Shown: positions 4,239 to 42,596, counted from the first letter of the stretch. The stretch is 64,000 bases of DNA from an uncultured Thiohalophilus sp. (GCA_964405505.1 CAYOOC010000005.1:820-64819); one strand, 5' to 3'. Program-made: numbers and translations. The notes: generated by a model not told the origin, from the letters alone.

Positions 4239-4311
4239 CTCTCGCAAAGACGCAGAGCCGCGGAGAGTGATCAATATCAGTTCGCTTTGCGCCGTGGCGT
4301 CTCTGCGAGAG
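4239..4311. repeat. Tri-repeat-armed palindrome, CGCRRAG family
   Basis: Left arm ctctCGCAAAGaCGCAGAGcCGCGGAGag (4239-4267), 17-nt spacer, right arm ctttgcgccgtggcgtctctgcgagag (4285-4311). Confidence 0.8.
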
Positions 4312-4358
4312 ACACGCTTTTCTCTTCTGCTGCATCCTGGACCAGAACAACCAGTTCA

Positions 4359-4388
4359 GGTGGAACCGCTTCGCTTGTTCCACCCTAC
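4359..4388 (-). repeat. GTAG-type REP (family R1), second copy
   Basis: Identical to 2067-2096. Confidence 0.85.
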
Positions 4389-4420
4389 AGGGGTGAGCGG
4401 GTAGTAGTGGGAACGTTTAT

Positions 4421-4684
4421 TTAGCCGCGTACTGCCTGTTCCATGCGGGCCATGGCCGACTGCCAGGGCTCATCATGAATCCGGTTGTCGGCCATCAGTT
4501 CCATTAACCCGTAAGCCAGCTGCCGGTTTTCGGGCGTAAACTCCTTGAGCTTGCCGAGCATGTACATATGCCCGGTCTTCTCCACGTTCAGCGTCGAGAC
4601 CAGCGCGAACAGCAATAACGATTGCCCCGAGCGGGGATCCGCCTCGATGATCGACGCCACCTGTTCCAGTACATCATTCGACAT
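4421..4684 (-). CDS. Hypothetical helical protein (87 aa)
   Basis: Protein-like composition (MSNDVLEQVASIIEADPRSGQSLLLFALV...), same strand as fba; no family recognised; start could also be 4690. Confidence 0.7.
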   Translation of the reverse strand: MSNDVLEQVASIIEADPRSGQSLLLFALVSTLNVEKTGHMYMLGKLKEFTPENRQLAYGLMELMADNRIHDEPWQSAMARMEQAVRG

Positions 4685-4702
4685 AATCACATCCTGAGAA
4701 AA

Positions 4703-5018
4703 CTGAATCCGCCAATTAACGCGAATAAACGCAAATCATTTTTTTAAACTCACATTGAAATTCATTAGCGTTGATTCGCGTGCATTTGCGGACTGAAAAA
4801 CTTATATCCCAACAAAAAAAGATTGTAGGTCACGCTGGCGTTAGCCTGCGTGACACCCTTTACGGAGAATGTCAGGTAGCGCTACGCGCAGCCTGACCTA
4901 CACCTGAGTTCGCCAATTAACGCGAATAAACGCCAATCACTTTAAACTCACATTGATATTCATTAGCGTTTATTTGCGTGCATTTGCGGACTGAAAAACC
5001 TATATCCCAACGAAAAAA
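4703..5018. repeat. Composite repeat: palindrome A - REP R2 - REP R3 - palindrome A
   Basis: About 115-nt direct repeat (4703-4820 and 4904-5018, period about 201) carrying palindrome A (4708-4792, 4909-4990). Between the copies sit inverted REPs GTAG-gtcacgc..gcgtgac (4825-4854) and gtcagg..cctgac-CTAC (4871-4901). Confidence 0.85.
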
Positions 5019-5039
5019 GGCGGGCCGAGGCCCGCCTTT
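5013..5039 (-). terminator. Intrinsic terminator after fba
   Basis: aaaggcgggc-cgag-gcccgccttt stem, with a 6-U run on the minus strand. Confidence 0.8.
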
Positions 5040-5061
5040 GCTACAGCGATAGTCCGTAGAC

Positions 5062-6138
5062 TTAAGCCGCTTTGGACTTGACCTTCGGATCCAGTTCGCC
5101 GGAGGCGTAACGCTCAACCATTTTTTCCAGGTTGATAACGTCGATCTTGCTGGCATTGCCGGCGCAACCGAAGGCTTCGAAACGGGCCTTGCAGATTTCC
5201 TTCATGGCCTTGGTAGATTCCTTGAGGAATTTACGCGGGTCGAAGTTGCTCGGGTTGTCGGCCAGGTGCTTGCGAACGGCACCGGTGGAAGCCATGCGCA
5301 GGTCGGTGTCGATGTTGACCTTGCGCACGCCGTGCTTGATGCCTTCCTGGATTTCGTGGACCGGTACACCATAGGTGCTGCCCATGTCACCGCCGTAGTT
5401 ATTGATGATTTCCAGCCATTCCTGCGGAACGGAAGAAGAACCGTGCATAACCAGGTGGGTATCCGGAATCCGCTCGTGGATTTCCTTGATGCGATCGATG
5501 CGCAGGATATCGCCGGTCGGCTCCTTGGTGAACTTGTAGGCGCCGTGGGAAGTCCCGATGGCAATGGCCAGGGCATCAACACCGGTCTGGGAAACGAAAT
5601 CGGCCGCTTCCTGGGGATCGGTCAGCAGCATGTCCATGTCCAGCTTGCCTTCGGCGCCGTGGCCGTCTTCTTCACCCATTTCGCCGGTTTCCAGCGAGCC
5701 CAGGCAACCCAGTTCGCCTTCGACGGAAACGCCGCCGGCATGAGCCATTTCCACGACCTTTCGGGTCACGTCGACGTTGTATTCATAGGAAGCAGGGGTC
5801 TTCATGTCTTCCATCAGGGAACCGTCCATCATGACCGAGCTGAAGCCGGACTGGATGGAGCGCAGACAAACGCCCGGGGCGGAGCCGTGGTCCTGGTGCA
5901 TGACGACCGGGATATGCGGGTACATTTCCAGCGCGGCGGTGATCAGGTGGCGCAGGAAGGGTTCGCCCGCGTAGGAGCGTGCCCCGGCGGAACCCTGCAT
6001 GATAACCGGGCTGTTGGTTTCGTCGGCAGCCTGCATGATGGCATGCACCTGCTCCATGTTGTTGACGTTGAACGCCGGCATGCCGTAGCCAACTTCGGCA
6101 GCATGATCCAGCAATTGACGCAGTGAAATCAGGGCCAT
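5062..6138 (-). CDS. fba: Fructose-bisphosphate aldolase class II (Calvin-cycle/CbbA-like subtype)
   Basis: [36 protein letters not shown] and KVNIDTD motifs. Confidence 0.96.
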
Positions 6139-6206
6139 TTTCGGGACCTCCTTAAATGTGTGTTTCCGACTAGTTTACTGTGTTTCGTTTAATCTTCCAG
6201 GCTCGA

Positions 6207-7667
6207 TCAGATGAGCGTGTTATCCAGATCGATGCCATCCACATCGCCCACCCGGACGATGGTCATGGCATTGGTACCACCCTGGACGCCCATCAGATCG
6301 CCTCGGGTAATCACGACCAGGTCGCCGTCGCGGACCGCACCTCGACGCAGCAGCTCATCAATGGCTTCCCGGTTAACGGCGGCGCGATCCAGGTCGGACG
6401 GGATCTCAAAGCTGACCGGATAAACGCCGCGGTAGAGTGTCACCTTTCTACGCGTCTCCACATAGCTCGTCAAGGCGTAGATGGGGATCCCCGAGCTGAT
6501 CCGGGACATCCAGCGGGTGGTCGCCCCTGACTCGGTGAGGGCGGCGATCGCCTTCACCCCAAGGTGGTTGGCGGTATACATGGCCGCCATGGCGATGGCC
6601 TCGTCGATGCGCTTGAAGCGGGTATCGATGCGATGGTCGGAGCGCTTGGCGGTGCGCTGTTTTTCCGCCTCGCGACAGATCCGGTCCATCGCGGCGATGG
6701 CGCTGTCCGGGTAGCGGCCGCTGGCGGTCTCGGCGGAGAGCATGACCGCGTCGGTGCCGTCCAGCACCGCGTTGGCCACGTCAAAAACCTCAGCGCGGGT
6801 CGGGATATGGCTGGTGATCATCGACTCCATCATCTGGGTCGCGGTGATCACCACCCGGTTCATGGCGCGGGCCTTGCTGATCAGGTTCTTCTGCACCGGC
6901 GGCAGCGCGGCATCGCCGATCTCCACGCCCAGGTCGCCGCGGGCGATCATGATCACGTCGGAGGCCTCGATGATCTCCTCGACCTTGTCCAGGGCATCGG
7001 CGCGTTCGATCTTGGCCACCACGTGCGCATTGCTGCCCGCCGCCTCGATCAGGTGACGGGCCTCGTTGACGTCGGCCGCGTTGCGCGGAAAGGAGACCGC
7101 AATGTAATCGGCCTTCATGGCCGCGGCGGTCTTGATGTCCTCGCGATCCTTGTGGGTCAGGGCCGGCGCCGACAGGCCGCCGCCCTGCTTGTTGAGTCCC
7201 TTGCGATCCAACAGCTCGCCGCCGACCACGACGCGACAATGCACTTCGGGCCCTTCAATGGTATCGACCCACAGGACAATCCGCCCGTCATCCAACAGCA
7301 GGGTATCGCCGCGGGTGACATCTTCGGGCAGTTCCTTGTAGGCCATACCGACCCGCTCGACCGTGCCGGCTTCAGGATCCAGTTTGGTATCGAGGATGAA
7401 AGTTTCACCCTCCTTGAGAGTGATCTTGCCGTCCTTGAAGCGCTCGATGCGGATTTTCGGCCCCTGCAGATCGCACATGACACCGACCTGACGACCGTGG
7501 GCGCGGGCCCGGTTGCGAATCTTGTCCGCCCGATCGATGTGCTCTTCGGCGGTGCCGTGGGAAAAATTGATCCTGGCAACATCCACCCCGGCCTCGATGA
7601 TCTTGTCCATCACCTTGGGATCATCGGTCGCAGGGCCGAGCGTGGCAACAATTTTGGTTCTTCTCAT
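6207..7667 (-). CDS. pyk: Pyruvate kinase
   Basis: MRRTKIVATLGPAT start (7667 preferred over the ORF-track 7760); DLQGPKIR, ARGDLG, ATQMMESM and DAVMLSAET motifs. Confidence 0.97.
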   Translation of the reverse strand: MRRTKIVATLGPATDDPKVMDKIIEAGVDVARINFSHGTAEEHIDRADKIRNRARAHGRQVGVMCDLQGPKIRIERFKDGKITLKEGETFILDTKLDPEAGTVERVGMAYKELPEDVTRGDTLLLDDGRIVLWVDTIEGPEVHCRVVVGGELLDRKGLNKQGGGLSAPALTHKDREDIKTAAAMKADYIAVSFPRNAADVNEARHLIEAAGSNAHVVAKIERADALDKVEEIIEASDVIMIARGDLGVEIGDAALPPVQKNLISKARAMNRVVITATQMMESMITSHIPTRAEVFDVANAVLDGTDAVMLSAETASGRYPDSAIAAMDRICREAEKQRTAKRSDHRIDTRFKRIDEAIAMAAMYTANHLGVKAIAALTESGATTRWMSRISSGIPIYALTSYVETRRKVTLYRGVYPVSFEIPSDLDRAAVNREAIDELLRRGAVRDGDLVVITRGDLMGVQGGTNAMTIVRVGDVDGIDLDNTLI

Positions 7668-7763
7668 AAGTCTAGTGACTGGTTCCTGTAACCGTCTTGT
7701 GGCAACGCCACTGAATAAGATTTTGTTTTTAGTCGCGGGCCGCCAGGCGGCCCCGCGCACATT

Positions 7764-7798
7764 CCACTAGCAACTAGAACCTGGTACCTAGCGCCTAG
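7764..7798. repeat. Heptamer tandem array (NNNCTAG x5)
   Basis: ccactag caactag aacctgg tacctag cgcctag; the last unit contains the pgk stop. Confidence 0.7.
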
Positions 7799-8979
7799 TT
7801 TTTGGCCCGTTCTTCCAGCATGGCCACGGCCGGCAGGGTCTTGCCTTCCAGGTATTCCAGGAACGCACCGCCGGCGGTGGAGATGTAGGAGACCTTGTCA
7901 TAGATATCGTACTTCTGGATCGCGGCGATGGTGTCGCCGCCACCGGCCAGGCTGAAGCCCTTGGCATTGGCGATGGCCATGGAAATGGTTTTGGTGCCTT
8001 CGCCGAACTGATCGAACTCGAACACACCAACCGGACCGTTCCAGACAATGGTACCGGCCTGGGCGATCTTGTCTGCCAGTTGTTTCGCAGAATCGGGACC
8101 GATATCAAAAATCATGTCGTCTTCGGCCACTTCATCGACTTTTTTCAGTACGGCCGGCTCGTTTTCATCGAACTTCTTGCCGACCACCACGTCGGTGGCG
8201 ATCGGGATGCTGGCGCCGGCCGCCTCGGCCTTTTGCATCAGTTCTTTGGCCGTATCGACCAGATCGTCCTCGCACAGGGACTTGCCCACCGGATGACCGG
8301 CCGCCTTGAGGAAAGTGTTGGCAATCCCGCCACCGACAATCAGCTGATCCACCTTGGTGGAGAGCGCTTCGAGCACGGTCAGCTTGGTGGAGACCTTGGA
8401 GCCGCCGACAATAGCGACCATCGGCCGGGCCGGATCGGCCAGTGCCTTGGCCAGCGCTTCCAGCTCTTCGGCCAGCAGCAGACCGGCACAGGCGGTCGGG
8501 GCAAACTTGCCGACGCCGTGGGTGGAAGCCTGGGCGCGGTGTGCGGTACCGAAGGCATCCATCACGAACACGTCGCACAGCGCGGCGTATTTCTTGGCCA
8601 GGGTTTCATCGTCTTTCTTTTCGCCGGCGTTGAAACGCACGTTTTCCAGCAGGACGACTTCGCCTTCGGCCGGCTGCGGATCGTTGTCCATGTAATCCTT
8701 GGACAGGCGAACCTGCTTGCCCAGCTTGGCGGACATGTCATCGGCGATCGGTGCCAGGGAGTTTTCCTCGTCCGGTACGCCTTCTTCGGGACGACCGCGG
8801 TGGGACATCACCATAACCGCCGCGGCACCGTTTTTCAGGCAGTACTCGATGGTCGGCATGGACGCGGTAATCCGCGCATCGGAAGTGACCTTGCCGTTTT
8901 TCACCGGCACGTTGAGATCGGCGCGAATCAATACCCGCTTGCCGGACAGATCCAGATCAGTCAATTTTATAAAAGACAT
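7795..8979 (-). CDS. pgk: Phosphoglycerate kinase
   Basis: [40 protein letters not shown] and STAGGAFLE motifs. Confidence 0.98.
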
Positions 8980-9067
8980 GTTTGTTACTCCGTGTAAATT
9001 TTCAAAAACTATTAGCCAAACGGTCGGCGCTTGGCGAATAGCTCTTTCCGTAACGTTTTGTAATTAA

Positions 9068-9147
9068 AACGCGGAGAGCGCAGAGACGCGGAGGGGCAGA
9101 GAAACAAATTATTCTCCGCGACTCTGCGCCTCCGCGTGCTCTGCGTT
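9068..9147. repeat. Palindrome of the CGCRGAG family with four sub-repeats per arm
   Basis: aaCGCGGAGagCGCAGAGaCGCGGAGgGGCAGAG (9068-9101), 12-nt AT spacer, ctccgcgactctgcgcctccgcgtgctctgcgtt (9114-9147). Confidence 0.85.
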
Positions 9148-9167
9148 AATCAACCAAACCCGGCTGA

Positions 9168-10202
<1,035 letters not shown>

Positions 10203-10211
10203 TCAAAATTG

Positions 10212-12200
10212 TTACAGGATGTCTTCAACGGCCTTGGCGACGTTGTCGACAGTGAAACCGAAGTATTCAAACAGCTTGCCGGCGGGCGCGGACTCACCGA
10301 AGCGGTTGAGACCGACGACCTTGCCATTCATACCGACATATTTGTACCAGCCGTCGGTGACCCCGGCTTCGACCGCTACGCGGGCCGTCACATTCGAGGG
10401 CAGTACCGATTCGCGATAGGCGTCGTCCTGGGCTTCGAAGACATCGACGCAAGGCATGGAGACCACGCGAACCTTCTTGCCGGACAGTTTTTCCACCGCG
10501 CCCATGGCCAGGGCGACTTCCGAACCGGTGGCGATGATGATGGCGTCCGGCGTGCCGTCGCAATCTTTCAGCACATAGCCGCCACGCGCGATATTGGCGA
10601 TCTGTTCGGCGCTGCGTTCCTGGTGGGCCAGTCCCTGACGGCTGAAGATCAGCGAGGTCGGACCGTCATTGCGTTCCACGGCCGCTTTCCAGGCCACGGC
10701 GGTCTCGACGCTGTCACAGGGACGCCACAGGGACATGTTCGGGATCATGCGCAGGGTCGCGGTCTGCTCAACGGCCTGATGCGTCGGGCCGTCTTCGCCC
10801 AGACCGATCGAGTCATGGGTATAGACGAAGATGCTCGGGATCTTCATCAGTGAAGCCATGCGCAGCGCGTTACGCGCATACTCGGAGAACATCAGGAAGG
10901 TGCCGCCAAACGGCTTGAAGCCGCCATGCAGGGTGATGCCGTTGATGATGGCGGACATGCCGAATTCACGCACACCGTAAGACAGGTAGTTGCCGTCGCT
11001 GACCGTGTTGGTGATGGTCTTGGCATCGGGCCAGTCGGTCAGGTTCGACGGGGTCAGGTCGGCGGAGCCGCCGAGAAATTCCGGCAGCGCCTTGGCAAAG
11101 GCGGTGATGGCGCCCTGGGAGGCCTTGCGGGTCGCCGGGGAATCGGCTTTTTCCACGCACTGCTGGATGAAGCTGTTGGCGACCTCTTCCCAGTTGCCCG
11201 GCAGTTCGCCCTTCATGCGCCGCTCGAACTCGGCGGCCAGTTCGGGATGATCTTTCTTGTAGGCCTCGAATTTCTTGTTCCACTCGGCCTCGGCCTGCTT
11301 GCCCTTGTCCTTGGCATCCCAGCCGGAATAGACCTCGTCGGGGATCACAAACGGCTCATGCGGCCAGCCGATGTTTTCGCGGGTCGCCTTGACTTCGTCT
11401 TCGCCCAGCGCGGCACCGTGACAGTCGTGGCTGCCGCACAGGTTGGGTGCGCCGAAACCGATGGTGGTCTTGGTGCAGATCAGGGTGGGCTTGTCGTTGA
11501 CCGACTTGGCTTCGTGGATCGCCTTGTCGACCGCTTCGGCGTTATGCCCGTCGACATCGCGAATCACGTGCCAGCCATAGGCTTCAAAACGCTTGGGCGT
11601 GTCGTCGGTAAACCAGTTGTCGACGTGACCGTCGATGGAGATGCCGTTGTCATCCCAGAAGGCGATCAGCTTGCCCAGGCCCAGGGTGCCGGCCAGCGCG
11701 CAGGATTCATGGGAGATGCCTTCCATCATGCAGCCGTCGCCCAGGAACACCCAGGTATAGTGATCGACGATGTGGTGACCGTCGCGGTTGAACTGGCCGG
11801 CCAGGGTGCGTTCAGCCAGCGCCATACCCACGGCATTGGAGATGCCCTGACCCAGCGGACCGGTGGTGGTTTCCACGCCGGCAGTATAGCCGTATTCGGG
11901 ATGGCCCGGGGTCTTGGAATGCAGCTGACGGAAGTTTTTCAGTTCTTCCATCGGCAGGTCATAACCGGTCAGGTGCAGCAGGGAATAGATCAGCATGGAA
12001 CCATGGCCGTTGGAGAGCACAAAACGATCCCGGTCGTACCAGTTCGGGTTGGTCGGGTTGTGCTTCATGAAGTCGTTCCACAGGACTTCGGCGATATCGG
12101 CCATACCCATGGGCGCGCCCGGGTGGCCGGAATTTGCCTTTTGCACCGCGTCCATACTCAGGGCGCGGATTGCATTGGCGAGATCTTTGCGAGATGCCAT
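10212..12200 (-). CDS. tkt: Transketolase
   Basis: [25 protein letters not shown]...DDN and [15 protein letters not shown] motifs. Confidence 0.98.
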
Positions 12201-12568
12201 AAAGTTCCCCTCGGTTCATTAAATTGCAAAAATACTGTTATCGGTACTGCCAGGGGCGAAGCGTTTTCTGATGTGTTTTGTTTCATCAGAAATGAGCACT
12301 CCACCCGCGCCGTCGCTCGGCGCGTCTGAATTCGGTTACTAGCTTCCGTCGGGATTGCCGTAATGATGGAAGTCGAGCATTGTTGTTTTCAGGCGCTGTG
12401 TTGCCTGATGAAAATGCCGGTTCGGCTTCCTCCCCGGTTTAACGAGGCCGGGATTTTCCCATTTTTTACCTGTGGCGGGCAAGCGCCGGGTGCGCTACCA
12501 CTCCCGGCGCTTGCCTGGCTTATGGGGCAAACAGTGAATTTTATTGGCAAAAGTGGTGGGGTATTGGC

Positions 12569-13132
12569 TCAGCCACCCTCTTTCCACTTGATGGAACAGC
12601 CCATGCTGGGGATCTGCTCGGCCGGTCCGCGGCCGGTTTGCGCCACCTGCACCATCGCCTCGAACAGATCCCGGCGCGCGTCCGCCGGCGCGGTATCCTT
12701 GCGACTGGCATCGAACCGGCCCCGGTACTGCAGCTTGAGGTCGGCGTTGTAACCGAAAAAGTCCGGGGTGCAGACCGCGCCATAGGCTTTGGCGACTTGC
12801 TGGGACTCATCCATTAAATAAGGAAAGGGGAAGTCATATTCGGTGGCCACCTTCTGCATGTTCTCGAACGAGTCCTCGTCGTATTCGGTCGGGTCATTGG
12901 CCATGATCGCCACGCTGTTGATGCCGTGCTTATCGCGCAATTCGCGGGTATCACGCACCAGTCGTTCGCGAATCGCCTTGACGTAGGGGCAGTGGTTGCA
13001 GATAAACATCACCAGCAGGCCGTTTTCTCCCCGACACTGTTCCAGTGCCCAGGTCTTGCCGTCGACCCCCGGGAGGGCAAAATCCACCGCCGGCGCGTCA
13101 AAATCACAGACCGGAGTCTCCAGACTGACCAT
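12569..13132 (-). CDS. Thioredoxin-fold (AhpC/TSA/redoxin family) protein
   Basis: FICNHCPYV, ACTPDFF-like (AVCTPDFF) and SMGCSIKWK motifs; GGAGG RBS favours a start at 13132 over 13150. Confidence 0.88.
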   Translation of the reverse strand: MVSLETPVCDFDAPAVDFALPGVDGKTWALEQCRGENGLLVMFICNHCPYVKAIRERLVRDTRELRDKHGINSVAIMANDPTEYDEDSFENMQKVATEYDFPFPYLMDESQQVAKAYGAVCTPDFFGYNADLKLQYRGRFDASRKDTAPADARRDLFEAMVQVAQTGRGPAEQIPSMGCSIKWKEGG

Positions 13133-13265
13133 AAACCCTCCTTTTTTCATCTATACTTTAAAGCAGACGTCAGGGAACTTACCCGTTCGGGCCCCTGAAA
13201 ACAAATTCATTCGTGCCCCCCTGCACGTCTGCTTGCTGTAATACGTTGCTGTACAGGAGGTTCGT

Positions 13266-14072: not shown

Positions 14073-14078
14073 CGGAAT

Positions 14079-14294
14079 GTCAGGTAGCGCTGCGCGCAAC
14101 CTGACCTACGCCTGAGTCCGCCAATTAACGCGAATAAACGCCAATCATTTCAAGCATATATTGAAATTCATTAGCGTTGATTTGCGTGCATTTGCGGACT
14201 GAAAAAAAGATTGCAGGCCACGCTGGCGTTAGCCTGCGTAACACTTCTGCCGATACGGAGTAAGTCAGGTAGCGCTGCGCGCCACCTGACCCAC
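14079..14294. repeat. Composite repeat: REP R3 - palindrome A - REP R2 - REP R3
   Basis: R3 14079-14109, A 14117-14198, R2 variant 14213-14242, R3 (GTGG variant) 14264-14294; same modules and order as 4703-5018. Confidence 0.85.
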
Positions 14295-14308
14295 TGGCCT
14301 AACCGGGG

Positions 14309-14337
14309 TTACTAGTCGCTAGCAGCTAGCGACTAGT
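14309..14337. repeat. CTAG heptamer array forming a perfect hairpin
   Basis: ttactag tcgctag cagctag cgactag; actagtcgctag-cag-ctagcgactagt is a 12-bp perfect stem. Confidence 0.75.
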
Positions 14338-14346
14338 TACTGGCAT

Positions 14347-28546: not shown

Positions 28547-29421
28547 TGCGCGCCCGCCTGCTACTCAACCTCGTCCTGTTACTGACCATCATCGTCCTGG
28601 TAGTGCTGGTCAGCCGCACCGCGGACGAAACGGAGACCCCGGCGCCATCGACGCTGACCGACCTCGCGCCGGATAAGGTCCAGCACATCCGGTTGCAACG
28701 CCGTGATCAGGAACCGGTCACCTTGTACAGGGAACAGGGCACCTGGTACATGCAGCAACCCTATCAGCTGGCGGCCAATGAATACCGCGTTCAGGCCCTG
28801 CTGCGCCTGTTACAGGCCGAGTATGAAACCGCGCACCGTCTCGATGAACTTGAGCCGGCCCGCTACGGACTGGAGCACCCCCGTGCCAGCCTCACCTATA
28901 ACGATTCAACGGTCATCGAATTCGGTGACACCGAACCGCTTTCCAAACAGCGCTATGTGCGGTTCGGCAACCGGCTCTATCTGTTACCCGATACCCATTA
29001 CTATCACACCATCAGCCCGGCTACCGGTTATCTCAGCCATGCGCCACTGCCCAAGGGCAAGATCGTTGCGCTGGCATTACCCGATCTCCGTCTCGACCTG
29101 GAAGCGGGCCAGTGGCAGGCCCGGCCACCACAGCCGACACATTCCGCCGATGCGTTGACCGAACTGATCGCCAACTGGCGCAACGCCCAGGCACTGCGGC
29201 TCGAACCCTCTACACCGGACAGCCTGCCCAAAGCCGATATTGAAGTGCAACTGCAAGACCGGGAAGAACCCGTGCGCTTTACCCTGCAGATAAAAGACGG
29301 CCAGCCCGCCCTGCTGCGCCATGACGCGGCAATGCGCTACATCATCAACGACGAAATTCGCCAGCAGCTATTACAACTCCCCGAGCCACTACCCGAACCA
29401 CAACTGAAAACTGAAAATTAA
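28546..29421 (+). CDS. DUF4340-like periplasmic protein
   Basis: N-terminal membrane anchor and YGL..P motif; typical fourth gene of this ABC cassette. Confidence 0.75.
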   Translation: MRARLLLNLVLLLTIIVLVVLVSRTADETETPAPSTLTDLAPDKVQHIRLQRRDQEPVTLYREQGTWYMQQPYQLAANEYRVQALLRLLQAEYETAHRLDELEPARYGLEHPRASLTYNDSTVIEFGDTEPLSKQRYVRFGNRLYLLPDTHYYHTISPATGYLSHAPLPKGKIVALALPDLRLDLEAGQWQARPPQPTHSADALTELIANWRNAQALRLEPSTPDSLPKADIEVQLQDREEPVRFTLQIKDGQPALLRHDAAMRYIINDEIRQQLLQLPEPLPEPQLKTEN

Positions 29422-29573
29422 CCACCAAGACACGAAGACACAAAGAAAAAACTCAGATCATGTGGGTCAGGTTGCGCGATGTGCTACCTGACACGACCTA
29501 TTAATTAACAGTCTGCCCGTTTCAGGCATCCAGTACCTGAAAATATTACTTGGTGTCTTCGTGTCTTGGTGGT
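29421..29573. repeat. Tri-repeat-armed palindrome, CACNAAG family, enclosing a REP
   Basis: Arms accaccaagacacgaagacacaaag (29421-29445) and cttggtgtcttcgtgtcttggtggt (29549-29573) are 24/25 complementary; the 103-nt spacer holds REP R3 at 29462-29492. Confidence 0.88.
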
Positions 29574-32462: not shown

Positions 32463-32486
32463 CTTTGCGTCCTTTGCGCCTTTGCG
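32463..32486. repeat. Solo right arm of the CGCRRAG palindrome family
   Basis: CTTTGCG x3 at periods 9 and 8; no partner arm nearby. Confidence 0.65.
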
Positions 32487-32567: not shown

Positions 32568-33338
<771 letters not shown>

Positions 33339-33409
33339 TTATCCCCGTGACTGAACAGCGCTAGTGTAACGCGTCGCCCGCGCCGCGACCACGCCCTCAC
33401 CGGAGGCGA

Positions 33410-33976: not shown

Positions 33977-34047
33977 GTTGGTTGATTCCCGCTGATACAT
34001 CGTCACGGGTGTTATATCACGCCACTTGACTTGCACCAATCATGATT

Positions 34048-34215
34048 ATTCTCGCCAAGCCACAAGGGAATGACATAACGTGGTGAGCTCTGCGTCTCTG
34101 TGAGATCATGTGATGCTTTATCTCACACCTTGTTTTATCCCAATAATGAAAACTCTCGCCAGGGCGCAGAGACGCAAAGGGAACTACATAATGGGCGCTC
34201 TTGGCTGGCGAGAAT
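34048..34215. repeat. Two tandem degenerate CGCRRAG-family palindromes
   Basis: Arms at 34048-34067, 34088-34105, 34153-34180 and 34196-34215. Confidence 0.65.
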
Positions 34216-34223
34216 ATCAGGAA

Positions 34224-35600: not shown

Positions 35601-35614
35601 CAGGTAGAAAGATC

Positions 35615-36970
35615 TCAGTGTCCGGTGGCGGTCGGTGATCCAGCAGGTTGTTGGCCGTCAAGCGGTAACGGATCGAGTATTGTCACGCTGCGGTTATCCT
35701 GACGCAGATATTTGCGAGCCACCTGTTGAATCTGTTGCGGTGTGACGGCGTTAATTTTCTCGCGGTACGCTTCCATGGTTTGCCAGCCGAGTCCCACGGT
35801 TTCCAGAATCCCCATCTGCATGGCCTGATAGAACATGGAATCCTTTTCATAAACATCGCCGGCCACCACCTGGGCCTTGATCCGCGCCAGCTCATCTTGC
35901 CCGACCGGTTCGTTTTTCAACGCCTCGATCTCCTCCAGCAGGGCCTGCTCCAGTTCCGTGATATCATGGCCACGCGCCGGTGTTCCGCTGAGCGTGAACA
36001 GGTTGCCCTGCCGCGAATAGAGATCGTAACCGGCATCGGCACCGGCGGCGATCTGCTGCCCGCGCACCAGCCGCGCGGGCAGACGGGCACTGCGCCCGCT
36101 GCTTAAAATGCCGGTCATCACTTCCAGTGCGTAGGCTTCCCACTCCTGTTCGACGGTTTTGAGTACCGGCACGTGATAGCCGATCATTAAATAGGGCAAT
36201 TTGGCCGGTGCCTGAACGACGACTCGCCGCTCACCCTTTTGCGGCGGCTCGACCCGCGGCTTGATCGGCGGTACATCAACCTGCTGCAGGCGGGCGAAAT
36301 GTTTTCTTGCCAGGCGGTAAACTGCATCCGGCTCGACATCGCCAACCACAACCAGGGTCGCGTTGTTTGGCGCATACCACGGGTGATACCACTGTTGCAG
36401 ATCCTCGACGGTCAGGTTCTTCAGGTCGTTCATCCAGCCGATGGTCGGATGCCGGTACGGGCTCACCATAAACGCCGCCGCGTTGAATTTTTCATAGGCC
36501 AGGGCGCGCGGGTTATCTTCCGTGCGCAGTTTACGTTCCTCCATGACCACCTGACGTTCCTTTTGAAACTCGTCTTTCGGCAGGGTCAGGTTACGCATAC
36601 GATCGGCCTCCAGTTCGAAGCTGATCGCCAACCGGCTTTTTTCCAGTTGCTGGAAATAGGCGGTGAAATCCTTGCTGGTGAAGGCATTCTCCCGTCCGCC
36701 GTTTTCGGCAATGATGCGCGAGAACTCCCCGGGGCCGTGTTTTTCGGTGCCCTTGAACATCATGTGTTCCAGAACATGGGAGACGCCGGTGATCCCATTG
36801 TGTTCGTAACTGGCACCAATTTTGTACCAGATTTGCGAGACTACCACCGGGGCGCGGTGATCCTCGCGCACCAGCAGTTTCATGCCATTATCCAGATTGT
36901 ATTCGTGGACCTGGCCCAGTGCCGGTAAACAAAACAGTCCCAGCCCGAGCAGAATCAGTAAACGTCGCAT
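35615..36970 (-). CDS. M16B zinc peptidase, catalytic subunit
   Basis: Signal peptide; HVLEHMMFKGT; NAFT. Confidence 0.92.
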   Translation of the reverse strand: MRRLLILLGLGLFCLPALGQVHEYNLDNGMKLLVREDHRAPVVVSQIWYKIGASYEHNGITGVSHVLEHMMFKGTEKHGPGEFSRIIAENGGRENAFTSKDFTAYFQQLEKSRLAISFELEADRMRNLTLPKDEFQKERQVVMEERKLRTEDNPRALAYEKFNAAAFMVSPYRHPTIGWMNDLKNLTVEDLQQWYHPWYAPNNATLVVVGDVEPDAVYRLARKHFARLQQVDVPPIKPRVEPPQKGERRVVVQAPAKLPYLMIGYHVPVLKTVEQEWEAYALEVMTGILSSGRSARLPARLVRGQQIAAGADAGYDLYSRQGNLFTLSGTPARGHDITELEQALLEEIEALKNEPVGQDELARIKAQVVAGDVYEKDSMFYQAMQMGILETVGLGWQTMEAYREKINAVTPQQIQQVARKYLRQDNRSVTILDPLPLDGQQPAGSPTATGH

Positions 36971-37104
36971 TGATTTATTTGGCCTGTATGAGAGGTTGGT
37001 GGCTTACTCAAAACATCAAGCAGTGGTAGGATAGTGCGCCTGAAACACAGGAACAACCGGTTCCTCCACATTCCTCGATCACATTCACTACGACCCTGAA
37101 ATTG

Positions 37105-38100
37105 ATGTTTGGTTTCCGTAAATCCGATTCTGACAACCGCGACGCAAAATCCGCCGCGCCGGGTCTGTTTGCCCGCCTGAAGCAGGGGCTGTCACGCACC
37201 CGTTCCGGCCTCACCGAGAGCCTGACCCGCCTGGCCCGGGGCAAAAAACAGATCGATGATGAACTGCTCGAAGAGATCGAGACCCTGCTGCTGGGCGCCG
37301 ATGTCGGCGTCGAGGCGACCCGGCGGATCATCGACGAGCTGACCACCCGGGTCTCGCGCAAGGAACTGCAGGACAGCGATGCCCTGCTGGAGGCCCTGCA
37401 ACAGGATATGCAGCAGATTCTGGCCCCCTGCGAGGCACCGCTGACCATCGACACTACCTGCCAGCCGTTTGTGATCCTGATGGTCGGCATCAACGGGGCC
37501 GGCAAGACCACCACCATCGGTAAACTGGCCCGGCAACTCCAGCAACAGGGCCATTCCGTCATGCTGGCTGCCGGCGATACCTTCCGTGCCGCCGCCATCG
37601 AACAGCTGCAGACCTGGGGAGAACGCAACGACATCCCCGTCATCGCCCAGCAACACGGCGCCGACAGCGCCTCGGTCATTTATGACGCCATGGCCGCGGC
37701 CCGCTCGCGCGGCATTGATGTGCTGATCGCCGACACCGCCGGGCGCCTGCATACCCAGTCCAACCTGATGGACGAGCTGAAAAAGGTCAAACGGGTCATG
37801 ACCAAGCTGGATTCGGCCGCACCGCATGAAGTGATGCTGGTGGTGGATGCCGGCACCGGCCAGAACGCCCTGGTCCAGGCCGAACAATTCCACAACGCCG
37901 TGGGCCTGAGCGGCATTACCCTGACCAAACTCGACGGCACCGCCAGGGGCGGGGTAATCTTTGCCATTGCCCAGAAACTGGGCGTGCCGATCCGTTTCGT
38001 CGGCGTCGGCGAGAGCATCGAGGACCTGCGCCCGTTCCACGCCGGTGAATTCGTCCAGGCCCTGCTGGGCAGCGACACCAGCGAGGCGCAAGAGCAATAA
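37105..38100 (+). CDS. ftsY: SRP receptor GTPase
   Basis: GINGAGKTTT, DTFRAAA, DTAGR and TKLDGTARGG; short NG-only form. Confidence 0.97.
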   Translation: MFGFRKSDSDNRDAKSAAPGLFARLKQGLSRTRSGLTESLTRLARGKKQIDDELLEEIETLLLGADVGVEATRRIIDELTTRVSRKELQDSDALLEALQQDMQQILAPCEAPLTIDTTCQPFVILMVGINGAGKTTTIGKLARQLQQQGHSVMLAAGDTFRAAAIEQLQTWGERNDIPVIAQQHGADSASVIYDAMAAARSRGIDVLIADTAGRLHTQSNLMDELKKVKRVMTKLDSAAPHEVMLVVDAGTGQNALVQAEQFHNAVGLSGITLTKLDGTARGGVIFAIAQKLGVPIRFVGVGESIEDLRPFHAGEFVQALLGSDTSEAQEQ

Positions 38101-38210
38101 TAAAAAGCGGCCAGTGGTTCAATTCGTGACCGCGTCAGACAAACAAGGCGAACCGAAACGTTACGCTTTCGTAGTTGATGTAAAGGGGAAACCGGGGTGT
38201 ATCCAAATCA

Positions 38211-38238
38211 GCCACCGAAAACACCGAAGCCACTGAAA
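38211..38238. repeat. Solo left arm with CACYGAA x3
   Basis: gcCACCGAAaaCACCGAAgcCACTGAAa, period 9. Confidence 0.55.
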
Positions 38239-38266
38239 CGGGCGGCTACCCGAATGCCTGCGGGTT

Positions 38267-38300
38267 CTCCTCGTCCCTCGTTCCTCGTAACTCGTCCCTG
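38267..38300. repeat. Heptamer tandem array (NNNCTCG x4-5)
   Basis: ctcctcg tccctcg ttcctcg taactcg tccctg; reverse-complement relative of 19525-19553. Confidence 0.65.
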
Positions 38301-38309
38301 TGTTGTCGG

Positions 38310-38981
38310 ATGATTCGTTTCACCTCGGCCAGCAAGCGCTATCCCGGCGGCTATGAAGCCCTGACCAATGTCAGCTTCCACATGCCGGCCGGGCAGATGG
38401 CGTTTTTAACCGGCCATTCGGGCGCCGGCAAGAGTACCCTGCTCAAGCTCATTGCGCTGCTGGAGCGGCCCAGCCGCGGCCAGGTGCTGATCAACAACCA
38501 GAACCTGGCGCGCATCGGCCGCCGGCGCATTCCCTATTTCCGGCGCAACATCGGCATCATCTTCCAGGATCACCAGTTACTGTTCGATCGCACCGTGTTC
38601 GACAACGTGGCCCTGCCGCTGATCATCGCCGGTCAGCCGCAGCGCGAGATCGACCGGCGGGTACGTGCATCACTGGACAAGGTCGGCCTGCTGGGCAAGG
38701 AGAAGGCCTATCCGATTACGCTCTCCGGCGGCGAGCAACAGCGGGTCGGCATCGCCCGGGCGGTGGTCAACAAACCGCCGCTGCTGCTGGCCGACGAACC
38801 GACCGGCAACCTGGACCCGACGCTTTCCGCCGAGATCATGGGCATTTTCGAGGATTTCAGCCAGGTGGGCGTCACCGTGCTGGTGGCCAGCCACGATCTG
38901 GCCCTGATCTCTAACCTGCCCTACCGTCGCCTGACCCTGGAACAGGGCCGGCTGAGCGCCGACAGTGACCCGAGCGAGTAA
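38310..38981 (+). CDS. ftsE: Cell division ATP-binding protein
   Basis: [21 protein letters not shown] and [10 protein letters not shown]. Confidence 0.97.
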
Positions 38982-38985
38982 GCCC

Positions 38986-39975
38986 ATGCGCCGCGACCGC
39001 CCTGCCCCGTCCTCCAAGCCCCGGCGCAGTGAAGCGCGCCGCCCCGGCCCGCCGGGCCGGCTGCGCATTCACCTGTTGCGGCATGCCCAGGTGTTTTTCT
39101 ACAGCCTCGGCCAGCTCAGCCGCCGCCCGGCCTCGATGCTGATGACCGCCGCCGTCATCGGCATTGCGCTGGCCCTGCCCGCGGGCCTGCATGTGGTGCT
39201 CAAAAGCGCCCAGCAACTCAGCGGTGGCTGGGACGAGACGAGCCAGATTTCCCTGTTTTTGCAACGCGGCACCCCCGAGGCGGAGGCACGCCGGCTGGTC
39301 CGCCAGCTCGAGGCGCATCCGCGGGTTCGCCAGGTCAACTACATTTCCCCGCAGCAGGCGCTGGCCGAATTCCAGCGTCTGTCGGGCTTCGGCGAGGCAC
39401 TGGACGCCCTGCAGGAGAACCCCCTGCCGGCGGTGCTGGTGGTCCTGCCGGCGCTCGAGCGCAGCAACCCGGCCGCCACCGAGACGCTGCTGGCCGAGCT
39501 GCGCGAGAATCCGCGCGTGGATCTGGCCCGGCTCGATGTGCAATGGGTCAAACGGCTCTACGCCATCATGGATATCCTGCGCCAGGGAGTCTATGTACTG
39601 GCCAGCCTGCTGGCCCTGGCGGTACTGCTGGTGGTGGGCAACACGATTCGCCTGGCCATCCAGAACCGCCGGGACGAGATTGTGATCATCAAGCTGATTG
39701 GCGGCACCGACGCCTTCATTCGTCGTCCGTTTCTGTATACCGGCTTCTGGTATGGCCTGATTGGCGCCCTGATCGCCTGGCTGCTGGTCACGGTTTCCCT
39801 GTGGATTCTGAGCGGACCGGTGGAAAAACTGGCCGGTCTGTACCAAAACAGTTTCAGCCTGAGCGGATTGAATATCCAGACCACGGCCATATTGCTGCTA
39901 TCGGGGATCGCGCTGGGGCTGGTGGGCTCGTGGATCGCCGTGGGCCGCCATCTGCGTGACATCGAGCCGGGCTGA
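38986..39975 (+). CDS. ftsX: Cell division permease
   Basis: NPLP, GNTIRLAI..RRDEI and KLIGGTD.FIRRPF; start uncertain (38965 or 38986). Confidence 0.96.
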   Translation: MRRDRPAPSSKPRRSEARRPGPPGRLRIHLLRHAQVFFYSLGQLSRRPASMLMTAAVIGIALALPAGLHVVLKSAQQLSGGWDETSQISLFLQRGTPEAEARRLVRQLEAHPRVRQVNYISPQQALAEFQRLSGFGEALDALQENPLPAVLVVLPALERSNPAATETLLAELRENPRVDLARLDVQWVKRLYAIMDILRQGVYVLASLLALAVLLVVGNTIRLAIQNRRDEIVIIKLIGGTDAFIRRPFLYTGFWYGLIGALIAWLLVTVSLWILSGPVEKLAGLYQNSFSLSGLNIQTTAILLLSGIALGLVGSWIAVGRHLRDIEPG

Positions 39976-40064
39976 AGCCCAAAATAACCAGAAAATTTGT
40001 TACAGATTGCCCCGTTACTGTCGATACCTGTAGCAGTGCCGTAATTTGTATCCGATACTAAAAA

Positions 40065-41408
40065 ATGTCAGACATACAGACCCGAATCCTGGTGGTCGAT
40101 GGCTCGTCCGTGTCACGGGCGATCCTCGCTCGCATCCTGCGCGAGGAGATGGACCACGTCGAGGTGGTGACCTGCGAATCGGGCAATGAAGCACTGGCAC
40201 TGCTCAAACAGGCGCATTTCGACCTGATTACCACTGCCCTGCTGCTGTCGGACATGGATGGCCTGGCGCTGAGCCGCGCGGTACGGGACACCAAGCACCA
40301 TCATTACACCCCGGTCATCGTGGTCTCCGGCGACGCCGATGAACGTCTGCTGCGCGAGGGTTTCGAGGCCGGCGTCACCGATTATTTCGACAAATCCAGT
40401 GGCTACAAGGCCTTTGGTGACTTCATCAAATCCTTTATCCAGCGTAATACCGGACTGGTCGGCCATGTCCTGTATGTGGAAGACAGCCGCACTGCCGCCG
40501 CAGTGACCCGGAAAATCCTGGAAAAACACGGCCTCAAGGTGACCCTGACCGACAACGCCGAGCAGGCCATCGTGCTGCTGGACAACCCCAATCCCGAGAC
40601 CGCGTTCGACATGGTCATCACCGATTTCTTCCTCGAAGGGGCGTTGACCGGCGGTGACCTGCTGCACGCCATCCGCGCCCGCCTGCACCTGTCGCAGCAG
40701 GAGCTGCCGGTGCTGGTGCTGACCGGCTCCGACGACAAACAGAAACAGGTCGAGGTGTTCCACGCCGGGGGCAACGATTTTGTCGGCAAGCCCCTGATCG
40801 AAGAGGTGCTGATCGCCCGGGTCCGTTCGCTGCTGCTGATCAAGCACCAGTATGACGCGCTCAAGCAACAGACCGAAGCGATGCGCTGGATCGCCGCCAC
40901 CGACAGCCTGACCGGCGTGCGCAGCAAGCGCTACCTGGTGGACAACGGCGAAAGCCTCATTCGGGACACCACGCACCAGCCGGTCTGGGCCATGCTGATT
41001 GACATCGATCACTTCAAACGGATCAACGATACCCTGGGCCACATTACCGGCGATCACGTGCTGGCCGAACTGGGCGAGACGCTCAATCAGTGGTTCCCGG
41101 ACGATATGGCCGTGCGTTTCGGCGGGGAAGAATTCTGCGTGCTGGTCCGACAGACCCAGGCCGACGCCATGTTCGAGCTGGCGGAAAAGCTGCGCCACCA
41201 CGTCGAGCACCTGCAGCCGGCCGGAGTCGACATCACCATCAGCCTGGGGCTGGCCAGCACCGAGGACCACCCCGATCTGCACCTGAGCGAATTCCTGAAC
41301 AAGGCCGACCAGGCTCTCTACCATTCCAAGGAGCAGGGCCGAAACCGCGCCAGCCTGTTCGCCAGCGACGGGGTACAGACCTCCCCGTGGAACTATTCGA
41401 GCCCATAG
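40065..41408 (+). CDS. REC-REC-GGDEF diguanylate cyclase response regulator
   Basis: Two receiver domains; DSLTG, DIDHFKRINDTLGH.TGD, RFGGEEF and ADQALY. Confidence 0.93.
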   Translation: MSDIQTRILVVDGSSVSRAILARILREEMDHVEVVTCESGNEALALLKQAHFDLITTALLLSDMDGLALSRAVRDTKHHHYTPVIVVSGDADERLLREGFEAGVTDYFDKSSGYKAFGDFIKSFIQRNTGLVGHVLYVEDSRTAAAVTRKILEKHGLKVTLTDNAEQAIVLLDNPNPETAFDMVITDFFLEGALTGGDLLHAIRARLHLSQQELPVLVLTGSDDKQKQVEVFHAGGNDFVGKPLIEEVLIARVRSLLLIKHQYDALKQQTEAMRWIAATDSLTGVRSKRYLVDNGESLIRDTTHQPVWAMLIDIDHFKRINDTLGHITGDHVLAELGETLNQWFPDDMAVRFGGEEFCVLVRQTQADAMFELAEKLRHHVEHLQPAGVDITISLGLASTEDHPDLHLSEFLNKADQALYHSKEQGRNRASLFASDGVQTSPWNYSSP

Positions 41409-41429
41409 TGTTCACAAGTCTTTGTAATC

Positions 41430-41457
41430 TTGACAATTTCACTCTATATATTAGAGT
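41430..41457 (+). promoter_or_regulatory. sigma70 promoter of rpoH
   Basis: Perfect TTGACA (41430-35), N16, TAGAGT (41452-57). Confidence 0.55.
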
Positions 41458-41472
41458 GAACTAATAAGGAAT

Positions 41473-41499
41473 TTGGCACTCTAATTTATCGAGTGCTAG
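41473..41499. promoter_or_regulatory. CIRCE operator (HrcA site)
   Basis: TTGGCACTC-N9-GAGTGCTAG against consensus TTAGCACTC-N9-GAGTGCTAA (16/18), between the promoter and the rpoH start. Confidence 0.88.
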
Positions 41500-41534
41500 T
41501 ATTGGTGAATATGATGAACGAGGAAACACAGATT

Positions 41535-42386
41535 ATGAGTAAGGGTCTAGAACTGCAACTGGCCGTCCCGACCGGCAACCTGGAATCCTATATTCAGGCA
41601 ACGCGCAGTATTCCGATGCTTTCGGCGGAGGAAGAGACCTCACTGGCCCGACGCTGGCAGGAACAGCAGGATCTGGATGCCGCGCAACAGCTGGTGCTCT
41701 CGCATCTGCGCTTTGTCGTCCACATTGCCCGTAGCTACAGCGGCTACGGTCTGCCTCAGGCGGATCTGATCCAGGAGGGCAACATCGGGCTGATGAAGGC
41801 GGTCAAACGCTTCGATCCCAATGTGGGTGTGCGCCTGGTGTCCTTTGCGGTCTACTGGATCCGCGCCGAGATTCACGAATATATCCTGCGCAACTGGCGC
41901 ATCGTCAAGGTCGCCACCACCAAGGCGCAGCGTAAACTGTTCTTCAACCTGCGCAGCGCCAAACAGCGTCTGGGCTGGTTCAACCAGGATGAGGTCGAAT
42001 CGGTGGCCGAGGATCTCGGCGTGACCACCAAGGACGTGCGCGAGATGGAATCGCGCATGAGCGGCCAGGACGTCGGCTTCGATCAGCCGGATGATGACGA
42101 CGACGATCGGCCCAATCTCTCACCGGTCGGCTTTCTGGAAGACATGAGCCATGAGCCGTCGCAGGTAGTGGAAGACCAGCAATGGGAAGATCACAGCAAA
42201 CAACAGCTGATGGGCGCCCTGCAGAAGCTGGACGATCGCAGCCGCGATATCATCACCCGGCGCTGGTTAAGCGACAACAAATCCACGCTGCATGATCTGG
42301 CCGATACCTACAACATCTCGGCCGAACGGATCCGTCAGCTGGAAAGCAATGCCATGAAAAAACTGCGTGGTGCACTGACCGCCTGA
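41535..42386 (+). CDS. rpoH: RNA polymerase sigma-32 factor
   Basis: [14 protein letters not shown], RpoH box QRKLFFNLR and SAERIRQLE; the ATG at 41535 has a GAGG RBS. Confidence 0.97.
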
Positions 42387-42393
42387 CTTCAAG

Positions 42394-42421
42394 GGGCTAG
42401 TCTCCAGGTGCTAGTCGCTAG
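42394..42421. repeat. Heptamer tandem array (NNNCTAG x4)
   Basis: gggctag tctccag gtgctag tcgctag, directly after the rpoH stop. Confidence 0.65.
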
Positions 42422-42453
42422 AACCCAAATTGAACGACCAGCATTAAACTACT

Positions 42454-42486
42454 AAAAGGCCTCCGAATGGAGGCCTTTTTTGTTTT
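42454..42486. terminator. Bidirectional intrinsic terminator
   Basis: aaaaggcctcc-gaat-ggaggcctttt followed by further U residues; lies between convergent genes. Confidence 0.85.
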
Positions 42487-42524
42487 GGTCTGTCTTGAGT
42501 TTTATGTAAACGAAACAATAATTA

Positions 42525-42596
42525 TCCGCTAATTAACGCGAATAAACGCCAATCAACTTGTCATTACATTTGCGTCAATTCGCGTGCATTTGCGGA
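42525..42596. repeat. Palindrome A (CGCNAAT family), stand-alone copy
   Basis: tccgctaattaacgcgaataaacgccaat ... atttgcgtcaattcgcgtgcatttgcgga, with a shorter and different spacer than the other three copies. Confidence 0.85.

Follow-up and report, generated by a model that had tools for sequence, protein, structure and literature searches.

Several described systems resemble the elements reported here. Repetitive extragenic palindromic (REP) sequences and REP doublets forming hairpins (REPINs) have as their partner the REP-associated tyrosine transposase (RAYT), an association reportedly described by Nunvar in 2010 and by Bertels and Rainey. Miniature inverted-repeat transposable elements (MITEs), e.g., Correia/NEMIS, share their inner sequence with an autonomous transposon and are accompanied by a target-site duplication. 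Cyanobacterial short tandemly repeated repetitive (STRR) sequences are heptanucleotide tandem repeats, reportedly described by Mazel in 1990. Coxiella burnetii's 23S rRNA intervening sequence (IVS) is a cassette bearing an open reading frame (ORF), with tandem heptamers of variable number in its terminal stem, where RNase III cuts (PMC4990558). In this study, we analysed a 64-kb stretch of DNA from an uncultured Thiohalophilus sp. (GCA_964405505.1, CAYOOC010000005.1:820-64819; hereafter the window), whose intergenic regions carry palindromes made of spaced heptamer arrays. In the genome of origin, four sequence families of such arrays are each paired with one gene for a small GxxExxY protein. 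We consider it rather probable that these are REPIN/RAYT-like partnerships, in which each putative nuclease would recognise the heptamer arrays of its own family, the gene-less copies being members of that family.

The likeness to REP/REPIN–RAYT systems lies in the dispersed intergenic palindromic repeats, present in tens to hundreds per genome, in an enzyme gene that occurs in one copy, is inherited vertically and has repeats of its own family on its flanks, and in the coexistence of several families per genome, each with a gene and with smaller populations where the gene is missing. The differences concern both partners. The protein here is a predicted 125-residue PD-(D/E)XK (Cas4-like) nuclease, whereas RAYT is a Y1 HUH (IS200/IS605-like) transposase. 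The arms consist of three to four spaced heptamers with a free central base, whereas a REP is a GTAG-headed imperfect hairpin of 20–40 nt; compensatory arm changes are missing, and many elements have long, unique, AT-rich interiors. Cyanobacterial STRRs share the intergenic 7-base repeats and the existence of several sequence families, but by description they are contiguous tandem repeats with a period of 7.

The draft genome that contains the window (G000) comprises 2.99 Mb in 130 contigs, with 57% G+C and 90.8% completeness. The comparison set consisted of eight further genomes of the same genus (G001 to G008), which are kin of G000 and include several incomplete drafts. Arrays were sought genome-wide with the generic pattern (C-R-C-N-R-A-N plus 1–3 nt) repeated at least three times, and first-order Markov shuffles served as controls. 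G000 yielded 503 arrays against 6–7 in the controls, in agreement with the premise of the initial annotation that further copies exist genome-wide. Almost all fall into the four families CGCRRAG (213 arrays), CGCNAAT (103), CACYGAA (98) and CACNAAG (81). The unit period of CGCNAAT is 10 nt and not the 8–9 nt proposed initially. CGCRRAG elements occur as type A (four units, linkers of 2, 1 and 2 nt, outer ..CTGGAAATAA ends, median spacer 93 nt) and type B (three units, 'ctct'..'agag' ends, median spacer 19 nt).

Adjacent arrays of one family follow the order word array, then reverse complement, in 171 pairs (342 arrays), versus 11 pairs in the opposite order. The polarity of the elements is therefore fixed; for a plain hairpin, this would be unnecessary. 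Paired elements make up about 0.8% of G000, and their spacer lengths are bimodal, at about 10–30 nt and 60–150 nt. Since the base preceding the heptamer is usually A, the true unit is A-C-R-C-N-R-A-N. A logo of the core positions is partly circular because the arrays were picked by the core pattern; partner arms and orthologous copies were relied on instead.

Each of the four GxxExxY genes of G000 (PF13366/TIGR04256) is bracketed on both sides by arms of a different family, and the cassettes hold no other gene (Table 1). The statement in the initial annotation that such arms flank GxxExxY genes was thus borne out, with one filled cassette per family. All four proteins match PF13366 with 124–141 bits (cut-off 22) and TIGR04256 with 132–147 bits (cut-off 35; E 1e-39 to 1e-43). 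They are mutually 29–41% identical; four diverged paralogues, one per family, take the place of the single shared recogniser initially suggested by the common geometry. The catalytic motifs E / D / ExK / QxxxY are intact in all four, with E27, E77, Q91 and Y95 invariant and D67 and K79 conserved at 90% or more. An AlphaFold2 model (pLDDT, the predicted local distance difference test score, of 95.8) found its best structural matches in Cas4, lambda exonuclease and RecE. From its motifs and predicted structure, the partner is classed as a small PD-(D/E)XK nuclease of the GxxExxY family with a Cas4-like fold.

A phmmer search of the PDB (E up to 10) retrieved no solved homologue of the GxxExxY protein. 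Identity with Cas4 itself was rejected: the 125-residue protein has two cysteines only, compared to the four of the Fe-S cluster of Cas4, PADLOC Cas4 matches were weak (E 3e-4 to 5e-3), and the gene stands alone between trpE and trpG, not with cas1/cas2. Regarding membership in a defence system, PADLOC gave these weak Cas4-like matches only. According to a database search, the closest named relatives are labelled 'Gammaproteobacteria bacterium' bins, and at least 8000 close relatives exist. At four cassette loci, the Shine-Dalgarno sequence of the GxxExxY gene is formed by the innermost arm unit running into GAG (..CAAAGGAG.. or ..CCAAGGAG..), 6–8 nt before the ATG. In the CACYGAA cassette, in-frame translation of the arm would give an N-terminal T-E-N/S/D repeat.

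Other small genes had also been expected between such arms. Two PF05635 four-helix-bundle genes in G000 are indeed bracketed, by heptamer families other than the four flagged ones (ACGAGNN, and CGYGAG/CTCACGC). The expectation did not hold for DUF559-type ORFs: the sole DUF559 gene of G000 (C26:32194-32508) has CTCCCC..GGGGAG hairpins on both sides ('tctccccctgaagggggagaggggag') instead of heptamer arrays.

Each GxxExxY gene is single-copy at a fixed syntenic locus, and the gene-bearing cassettes are co-oriented within operons. Between trpE and trpG, 9 of 9 genomes have the CGCRRAG-armed gene, which also occurs there in three further genera of the family, in degraded form in one of them (G013). 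The CACNAAG-armed gene is found upstream of a czcA-like gene in six genomes (G000, G001, G002, G003, G006 and G007), the CGCNAAT-armed gene between carA and carB in two (G000 and G004), and the CACYGAA-armed gene in G000 only. A fifth GxxExxY gene, with type B arms, is present in G002 and G003; the corresponding locus of G000 falls in a contig break (C101|C122). GxxExxY cassettes also stand directly before trpG (MLLMIDNYDSF..) in unrelated Proteobacteria, namely Sedimenticolaceae, a Burkholderiales bin with CACAGAG-type arms, and others. Such trpG-adjacent cassettes in distant lineages either go back to a very old insertion or mark a target that is preferred.

Strict arrays were counted in all nine genomes, with the kinship and incompleteness already mentioned applying to these counts. 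CGCNAAT arrays number 83 (G000) and 80 (G004) with the gene, against 34 (G002), 11 (G003), 8 (G007), 2 (G008), 1 (G001) and 0 (G005, G006) without it; even with up to three mismatches allowed, this family stays at noise level in G001 and G006. The carA–carB gene is missing in G002 and G007, and CGCNAAT arrays are fewer in both. CACYGAA arrays number 89 with the gene (G000) and 36 (G002), 23 (G001), 13 (G006), 11 (G004), 2 (G007, G008) and 0 (G003, G005) without it. For CACNAAG, the six genomes with the gene have 47–92 arrays (G001, 92; G000 and G006, 64 each; G002, 60; G003, 48; G007, 47), compared to 34 (G004), 26 (G008) and 0 (G005) in the others. CGCRRAG arrays occur throughout: 398 in G006, 373 in G004, 336 in G007, 291 in G002, 284 in G008, 274 in G000, 271 in G001, 186 in G003 and 39 in G005. 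Among the four families, G005 has the CGCRRAG gene alone and CGCRRAG arrays alone.

These counts suggest that a family is generally more abundant where its matching gene is found; given the kinship of the genomes and the incompleteness of some, this is a suggestive pattern and no statistical proof. The combination typical of RAYTs, a single-copy gene with flanks from its own repeat family and repeat abundance tied to the gene, was thus observed here too, with exceptions in G006 and G002 that are weighed below.

The carA–carB junction presents filled and gene-less states of one orthologous site, as had been anticipated. G000 and G004 have the filled cassette. In G007, the same two arms enclose remnants of the inner flanks of the cassette, 25 and 22 nt long, and the gene is gone; because the inner flanks are kept, this copy is a deletion product and not a virgin site. 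Judging from these remnants, gene-less copies at least sometimes derive from filled ones by internal deletion. The junction holds a CACNAAG palindrome in G001 and other fillers in G002 and G003. The initial description of the window copies as cargo-less sites is accurate in that they belong to the same families as the gene-bearing arms, but nothing shows vacant sites awaiting cargo. In G000 (C18:41400-41480) and G004, carA has its stop codon within the CGCNAAT cassette's left arm; in G000, the resulting CarA C-terminus (..IESANERK, then stop) is new compared to congeners without the cassette.

Under classical homing, the gene-less palindromes would be intact targets of a free-standing homing endonuclease gene that is copied in by repair from a filled copy. 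The position of the gene exactly between two arms, the identical arms of the filled and gene-less carA–carB states, and the occupation of the trpE–trpG junction in distant lineages with different arm words would all fit. However, each family has one gene copy and 27–70 palindromes without a gene, the locus of the gene stays the same throughout the genus and beyond it, and the gene-less carA–carB copy of G007 is a deletion product. We regard homing as improbable.

An empty and a filled state could be compared cleanly at one site. A CACYGAA element (C32:2746-2835) is present in G000, degenerate in G003 and cleanly absent in G002 and G004, and no clear target-site duplication was found at this one clean pair. 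The interiors of gene-less elements were also compared. Where the spacer measures 40 nt or more, it is AT-rich (35% G+C) and in nearly all cases unique. Their derivation from decayed resident genes was rejected: a comparison of 74 such spacers with the four cassettes by blastn and tblastx gave nothing significant, and one weak match (C55:13842, E 0.011) was not convincing.

These observations bear on the possibility that the elements are MITE-like and moved by some transposase, with the GxxExxY gene as passenger or addiction module of the full-length element. As in MITEs, the elements are short and non-coding, have terminal inverted arms, outnumber the gene-bearing form and show presence/absence polymorphism at orthologous sites, and one short derivative (G007, carA–carB) arose from internal deletion. 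In contrast to MITEs, the cassettes contain no transposase or other gene, no clear target-site duplication was seen at the one clean pair, the gene-less interiors, with few exceptions, resemble neither one another nor the cassette, and the ends are conserved as words, not as whole sequences. Moreover, there are four separate families, each with a different paralogue. A MITE-like origin is considered unlikely.

The comparison of orthologous intergenic regions proposed in the initial annotation revealed that presence/absence and replacement are common. The pgk–gap palindrome is shared by six genomes (G000, G001, G004, G006, G007 and G008), with changes almost confined to the R positions; G003 has a CTAG-heptamer palindrome instead, and G005 the right arm only. 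The palindrome at 14117-14198 is absent from the orthologous site in G001, G002, G003, G006, G007 and G008, while the segment 14096-14296 that includes it is 100% identical to that of G004, where flanking genes are 85–97% identical. Likewise, the block 4708-4990 (an A-REP-REP-A mosaic spanning 4685-5013) is 99–100% identical to that of G002, and its place in G003 and G007 is taken by CGCRRAG elements with long unique spacers. The two near-identical mosaics suggest recent interspecies exchange or strong homogenisation of repeat blocks. The G003 orthologue of 4239-4311 has identical arms, and the spacer alone differs. In general, orthologous copies are more conserved than their coding flanks, except at the R positions and in the spacer.

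The use of G001 as an 'empty' reference for G006 elements was dropped, all 14 sites holding other elements. Both genomes are occupied at 14 of 14 orthologous sites compared (flanks 81–98% identical), with arms that differ systematically, CGCAAAG-type versus CGCGGAG-type or an inner TTGAATN palindrome, and with unalignable interiors. G001 also has many palindromes with TTGAATN-array inner arms (..aattttgaatgttgaatgttgaatt.. / ..aattcaacattcaaaatt..), either nested in CGCGGAG arms or alone. At the orthologues of the G000 CACYGAA cassette (C92:5480-6140), G001, G002, G003 and G007 carry long contiguous tandem repeats of period 7, (AGTTCTG)n, (AGTGCTG)n and (AGTCGGG)n, with an ACGAGNN arm and a hairpin after them; in G004, the sequence is N there.

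The varied states at orthologous sites indicate that elements persist, get lost and get replaced at preferred sites. The long-lived copy at pgk–gap, together with conserved words and with single-copy, vertically inherited genes, could also point to host-beneficial binding sites (e.g., for chromosome organisation or regulation) served by a domesticated, possibly non-cutting GxxExxY protein and spread slowly by ordinary recombination. Such a role is difficult to reconcile with catalytic residues that are intact and nearly invariant across the family, with the rapid turnover and replacement at orthologous sites, and with the absence of whole families in congeners without obvious cost, and we give it little credence.

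Pairing between the arms was compared in register and out of register. The variable fourth base of paired units agrees in register no more often than one unit out of register (for CGCNAAT, 29% versus 28–33%). On the transcribed strand, co-directional contexts contain 66 G-U-type versus 72 A-C-type mismatches, so wobble pairing is not favoured. A selected hairpin was rejected on these two comparisons. With the fourth base non-complementary and wobble not favoured, selection seems to act on DNA motifs and not on an RNA stem, and the shared RNA fold offered initially as one explanation of the common geometry becomes unlikely.

The elements are placed preferentially near the 3' ends of genes. According to a crude gene caller, 81 lie in co-directional, 48 in convergent and 20 in divergent contexts, versus 1379, 423 and 401 intergenic regions of these kinds, and 1 of 165 lies inside an ORF. 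The 3'-end bias is strongest for CGCRRAG (34/26/3 in the same order). Short-spacer elements, folded as single strands, have a predicted folding z of about −7, with a mismatch in most units.

This hairpin potential, the preference for 3' ends and the co-orientation of cassettes inside operons would suit a function at the RNA level, where the arms, once transcribed, would fold into stems that cause termination or stabilisation or are substrates of RNase III, insulating an inserted gene and leaving gene-less copies as leftover hairpins. The Coxiella IVS, whose terminal heptamer stem is cut by RNase III (PMC4990558), offers a precedent. The likeness extends to the cassette of about 0.4–0.5 kb with one small ORF and terminal inverted repeats with variable tandem heptamers, and the IVS-type family PF05635 is itself bracketed by heptamer arrays in G000. 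However, the elements reported here lie between protein-coding genes and not in rRNA helices (25 or 45), they are mostly ORF-less, and the four families carry GxxExxY in place of S23p as cargo. The variable base lacks complementarity in any register, G-U is not favoured over A-C, and the statistics thus give no support for a selected RNA stem. Separate consensus terminators stand beside elements that are not themselves scored as terminators, and termination is difficult to reconcile with cassettes located within the trp and car operons. We consider a function at the RNA level very unlikely.

Known repeat classes were likewise set aside, as in the initial annotation. Intrinsic terminators were rejected because the consensus scan reports separate ones (5016-5039 and 9015-9035, the latter apart from the pgk–gap palindrome) and not the elements as whole hairpins. 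An array of clustered regularly interspaced short palindromic repeats (CRISPR) was rejected on account of the inverted arms and of units that measure 7 nt at 8–10 nt spacing, as opposed to direct repeats of 23–50 nt with unique spacers of similar length. Integron attC sites were rejected because the C-R-C-N-R-A-N words lack an attC core (no search for an integrase was made). True GTAG-type REPs are present separately in the same intergenic regions as the palindromes. The Rfam search returned an S-adenosylhomocysteine (SAH) riboswitch and no other match, with no rRNA in the region, so that the elements match no Rfam family. Taken together, the sequence comparisons speak more for conserved words that are read in DNA than for a conserved RNA fold or for simple terminators.

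Arm words and protein sequence also vary together. At trpE–trpG, G000 has a type III gene with an N-terminal 'RIANK' and AAAG-rich arms, and the pure AAG share of its CGCRRAG arrays is 34%. Type II genes ('EIS[RK]', mixed arms) are found in G002 and G005, with shares of 13% and 10%. The other six genomes have type I genes, mostly '[IL]AGE' ('LTRE' in G008), with GGAG/AGAG arms and shares of 0.4% (G008), 1.1% (G001), 1.6% (G004), 2.7% (G007) and 9% (G003). G006, whose type I gene is frameshifted, is an exception to this trend with 24%.

A wider sample comprised 16 loci of the relatives and a further 80 that came from two archaeal bins and many bacterial phyla. Arms were found with gapped words and the generic pattern; exact 5-mers missed most arrays, the central base being free. 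At least four generic units lie within 130 nt of the gene in 80 of the 96 loci. Residue 8 of the protein tracks position 5 of the word in 50 of 54 loci (K/N/R/Y with A; E/G/H/D with G), an association that is suggestive only.

In the partnership of nuclease and arrays that we favour, the arms would be inverted arrays of a 7-base protein-recognition word, (A)C-R-C-N-R-A-N, in three to four copies at 8–10 nt spacing. The nuclease would bind the words of its own family in DNA and nick or cut the element itself or DNA close to it. Templated by other copies, repair would then keep the core words intact while free positions drift, would swap units and interiors, and would occasionally place, remove or replace elements at preferred sites just past gene ends. 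A more specific version is conceivable but doubtful: residues of the N-terminal helix would read the 7-base word by a simple code, each protein would cut its own arrays genome-wide, and repair would rewrite arms and exchange interiors at hot spots near gene ends. If true, this would amount to nuclease-driven concerted evolution and cassette exchange with several orthogonal specificities per cell. It would account for interiors that bear no relation to one another, for the wholesale AAG/GAG differences between the arms of close species at orthologous sites, and for repeats with 100% identity across species.

Several points weigh against the partnership or its code version. Binding and cutting of the arrays by the nuclease, as well as repair-driven spread, are inferred from sequence, and a 125-residue nuclease alone cannot account for insertion at new sites. 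The unit spacing, which ranges from 8 to 10 nt depending on the family, is awkward for one rigid binding geometry, and the conservation of core positions in the logo is partly built in by the search pattern. The link between gene and abundance comes from nine genomes that are related and in several cases incomplete. G002 has 34–36 strict arrays each of CGCNAAT and CACYGAA, though the matching genes were not found there. CGCRRAG arrays are most numerous in G006 (95 of them are pure AAG-type) despite the frameshift in the trpE–trpG gene of this genome, where no gene with AAG-type arms was found either. For residue 8 and word position 5, a tree-aware test retained two supported independent pairs only; as the gene and its arms are physically linked, co-variation is expected by descent alone. 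In G006, the trpE–trpG gene (C8:568195-568548) is interrupted by a short frameshifted stretch with two TGA codons. The four rival explanations are less well supported than the partnership of nucleases and arrays.

All elements listed for the window in the initial annotation were found again on re-reading (Table 1), and every window copy lies between protein-coding genes. The stretch 34048-34215, first read as a single element whose spacer measures 103 nt, fits better as a pair of degenerate 'tct-CGC..' palindromes lying side by side. The REP reported in one spacer was recovered as a REP-like hairpin in the spacer of 29421-29573, together with a second hairpin. ACGAGNN, the fifth family, has 99 arrays genome-wide in G000. 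CTAGYNN-heptamer palindromes at 14308-14340 represent a further family, with 32 arrays genome-wide. A segment of about 330 nt (4110-4430) is present in G000 and G003 and is replaced by about 20 nt in G001, G002, G006 and G007; it contains an unannotated GC-rich structured stretch, the type B palindrome and a REP-like hairpin.

Table 1. Heptamer-array elements of the window (positions counted from its first letter) and heptamer-bracketed genes of G000 (contig:positions)
Location	Strand	Family	Description	Strict arrays (at least 3 units)
4239-4311		CGCRRAG	Type B palindrome: 'ctct', 3 units, 19 nt, 3 units, 'agag'	4243-4265(+), no strict partner
4708-4792		CGCNAAT	Palindrome, 3 units per arm, period 10, spacer 27 nt	4710-4736(+)/4764-4790(-)
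4909-4990		CGCNAAT	Palindrome, spacer 24 nt	4911-4937(+)/4962-4988(-)
9068-9147		CGCRRAG	Palindrome, pgk–gap intergenic, 4 units per arm, linkers 2,1,2, spacer 20 nt	9070-9093(+)/9114-9145(-)
14117-14198		CGCNAAT	Palindrome within REP-A-REP-REP mosaic	14119-14145(+)/14170-14196(-)
29421-29573		CACNAAG	Palindrome, 3 units per arm, period 8, spacer 103 nt, arms 90% complementary	29423-29445(+)/29549-29571(-)
32463-32486	-	CGCRRAG	Solo arm, 3 units	32463-32486(-), no strict partner
34048-34105		CGCRRAG	Degenerate type B palindrome, first of adjacent two; 2-unit match 34088-34102	
34155-34215		CGCRRAG	Degenerate type B palindrome, second of adjacent two; 2-unit match 34165-34179	
38211-38238	+	CACYGAA	Solo arm, 3 units	38213-38237(+), no strict partner
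38262-38295	-	ACGAGNN	Solo arm of fifth family, period 7	
42525-42596		CGCNAAT	Palindrome, spacer 14 nt	42527-42553(+)/42568-42594(-)
C49:18373-18723		CGCRRAG	GxxExxY gene between arms	
C70:14179-14526		CACNAAG	GxxExxY gene between arms	
C18:41521-41859		CGCNAAT	GxxExxY gene between arms	
C92:5616-5960		CACYGAA	GxxExxY gene between arms	
C49:3137-3442		ACGAGNN	PF05635 four-helix-bundle gene between arms	

A 2012 survey of PD-(D/E)XK proteins gave the function of PF13366 as 'unknown' (PMC3424549). GxxExxY/PF13366 is a very large protein family. Our literature search found no work tying GxxExxY to repeats and no published link of STRRs to GxxExxY or PF05635 genes, and the partnership of repeat and enzyme is apparently undescribed. 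The present analysis contributes a single genome with four orthogonal gene–repeat pairs, together with a comparison of gain, loss and replacement among relatives. Sister species that lost or swapped single genes provide a natural experiment, and each protein gains a candidate substrate and possibly a recognition code. If confirmed, the partnership would be a second case, mechanistically unrelated to REPIN/RAYT, of a long-lived association between repeat and enzyme in bacterial chromosomes, and could explain widespread heptamer arrays at gene junctions as well as heptamer-bearing rRNA intervening sequences. In practice, it might then also yield small sequence-specific nucleases.

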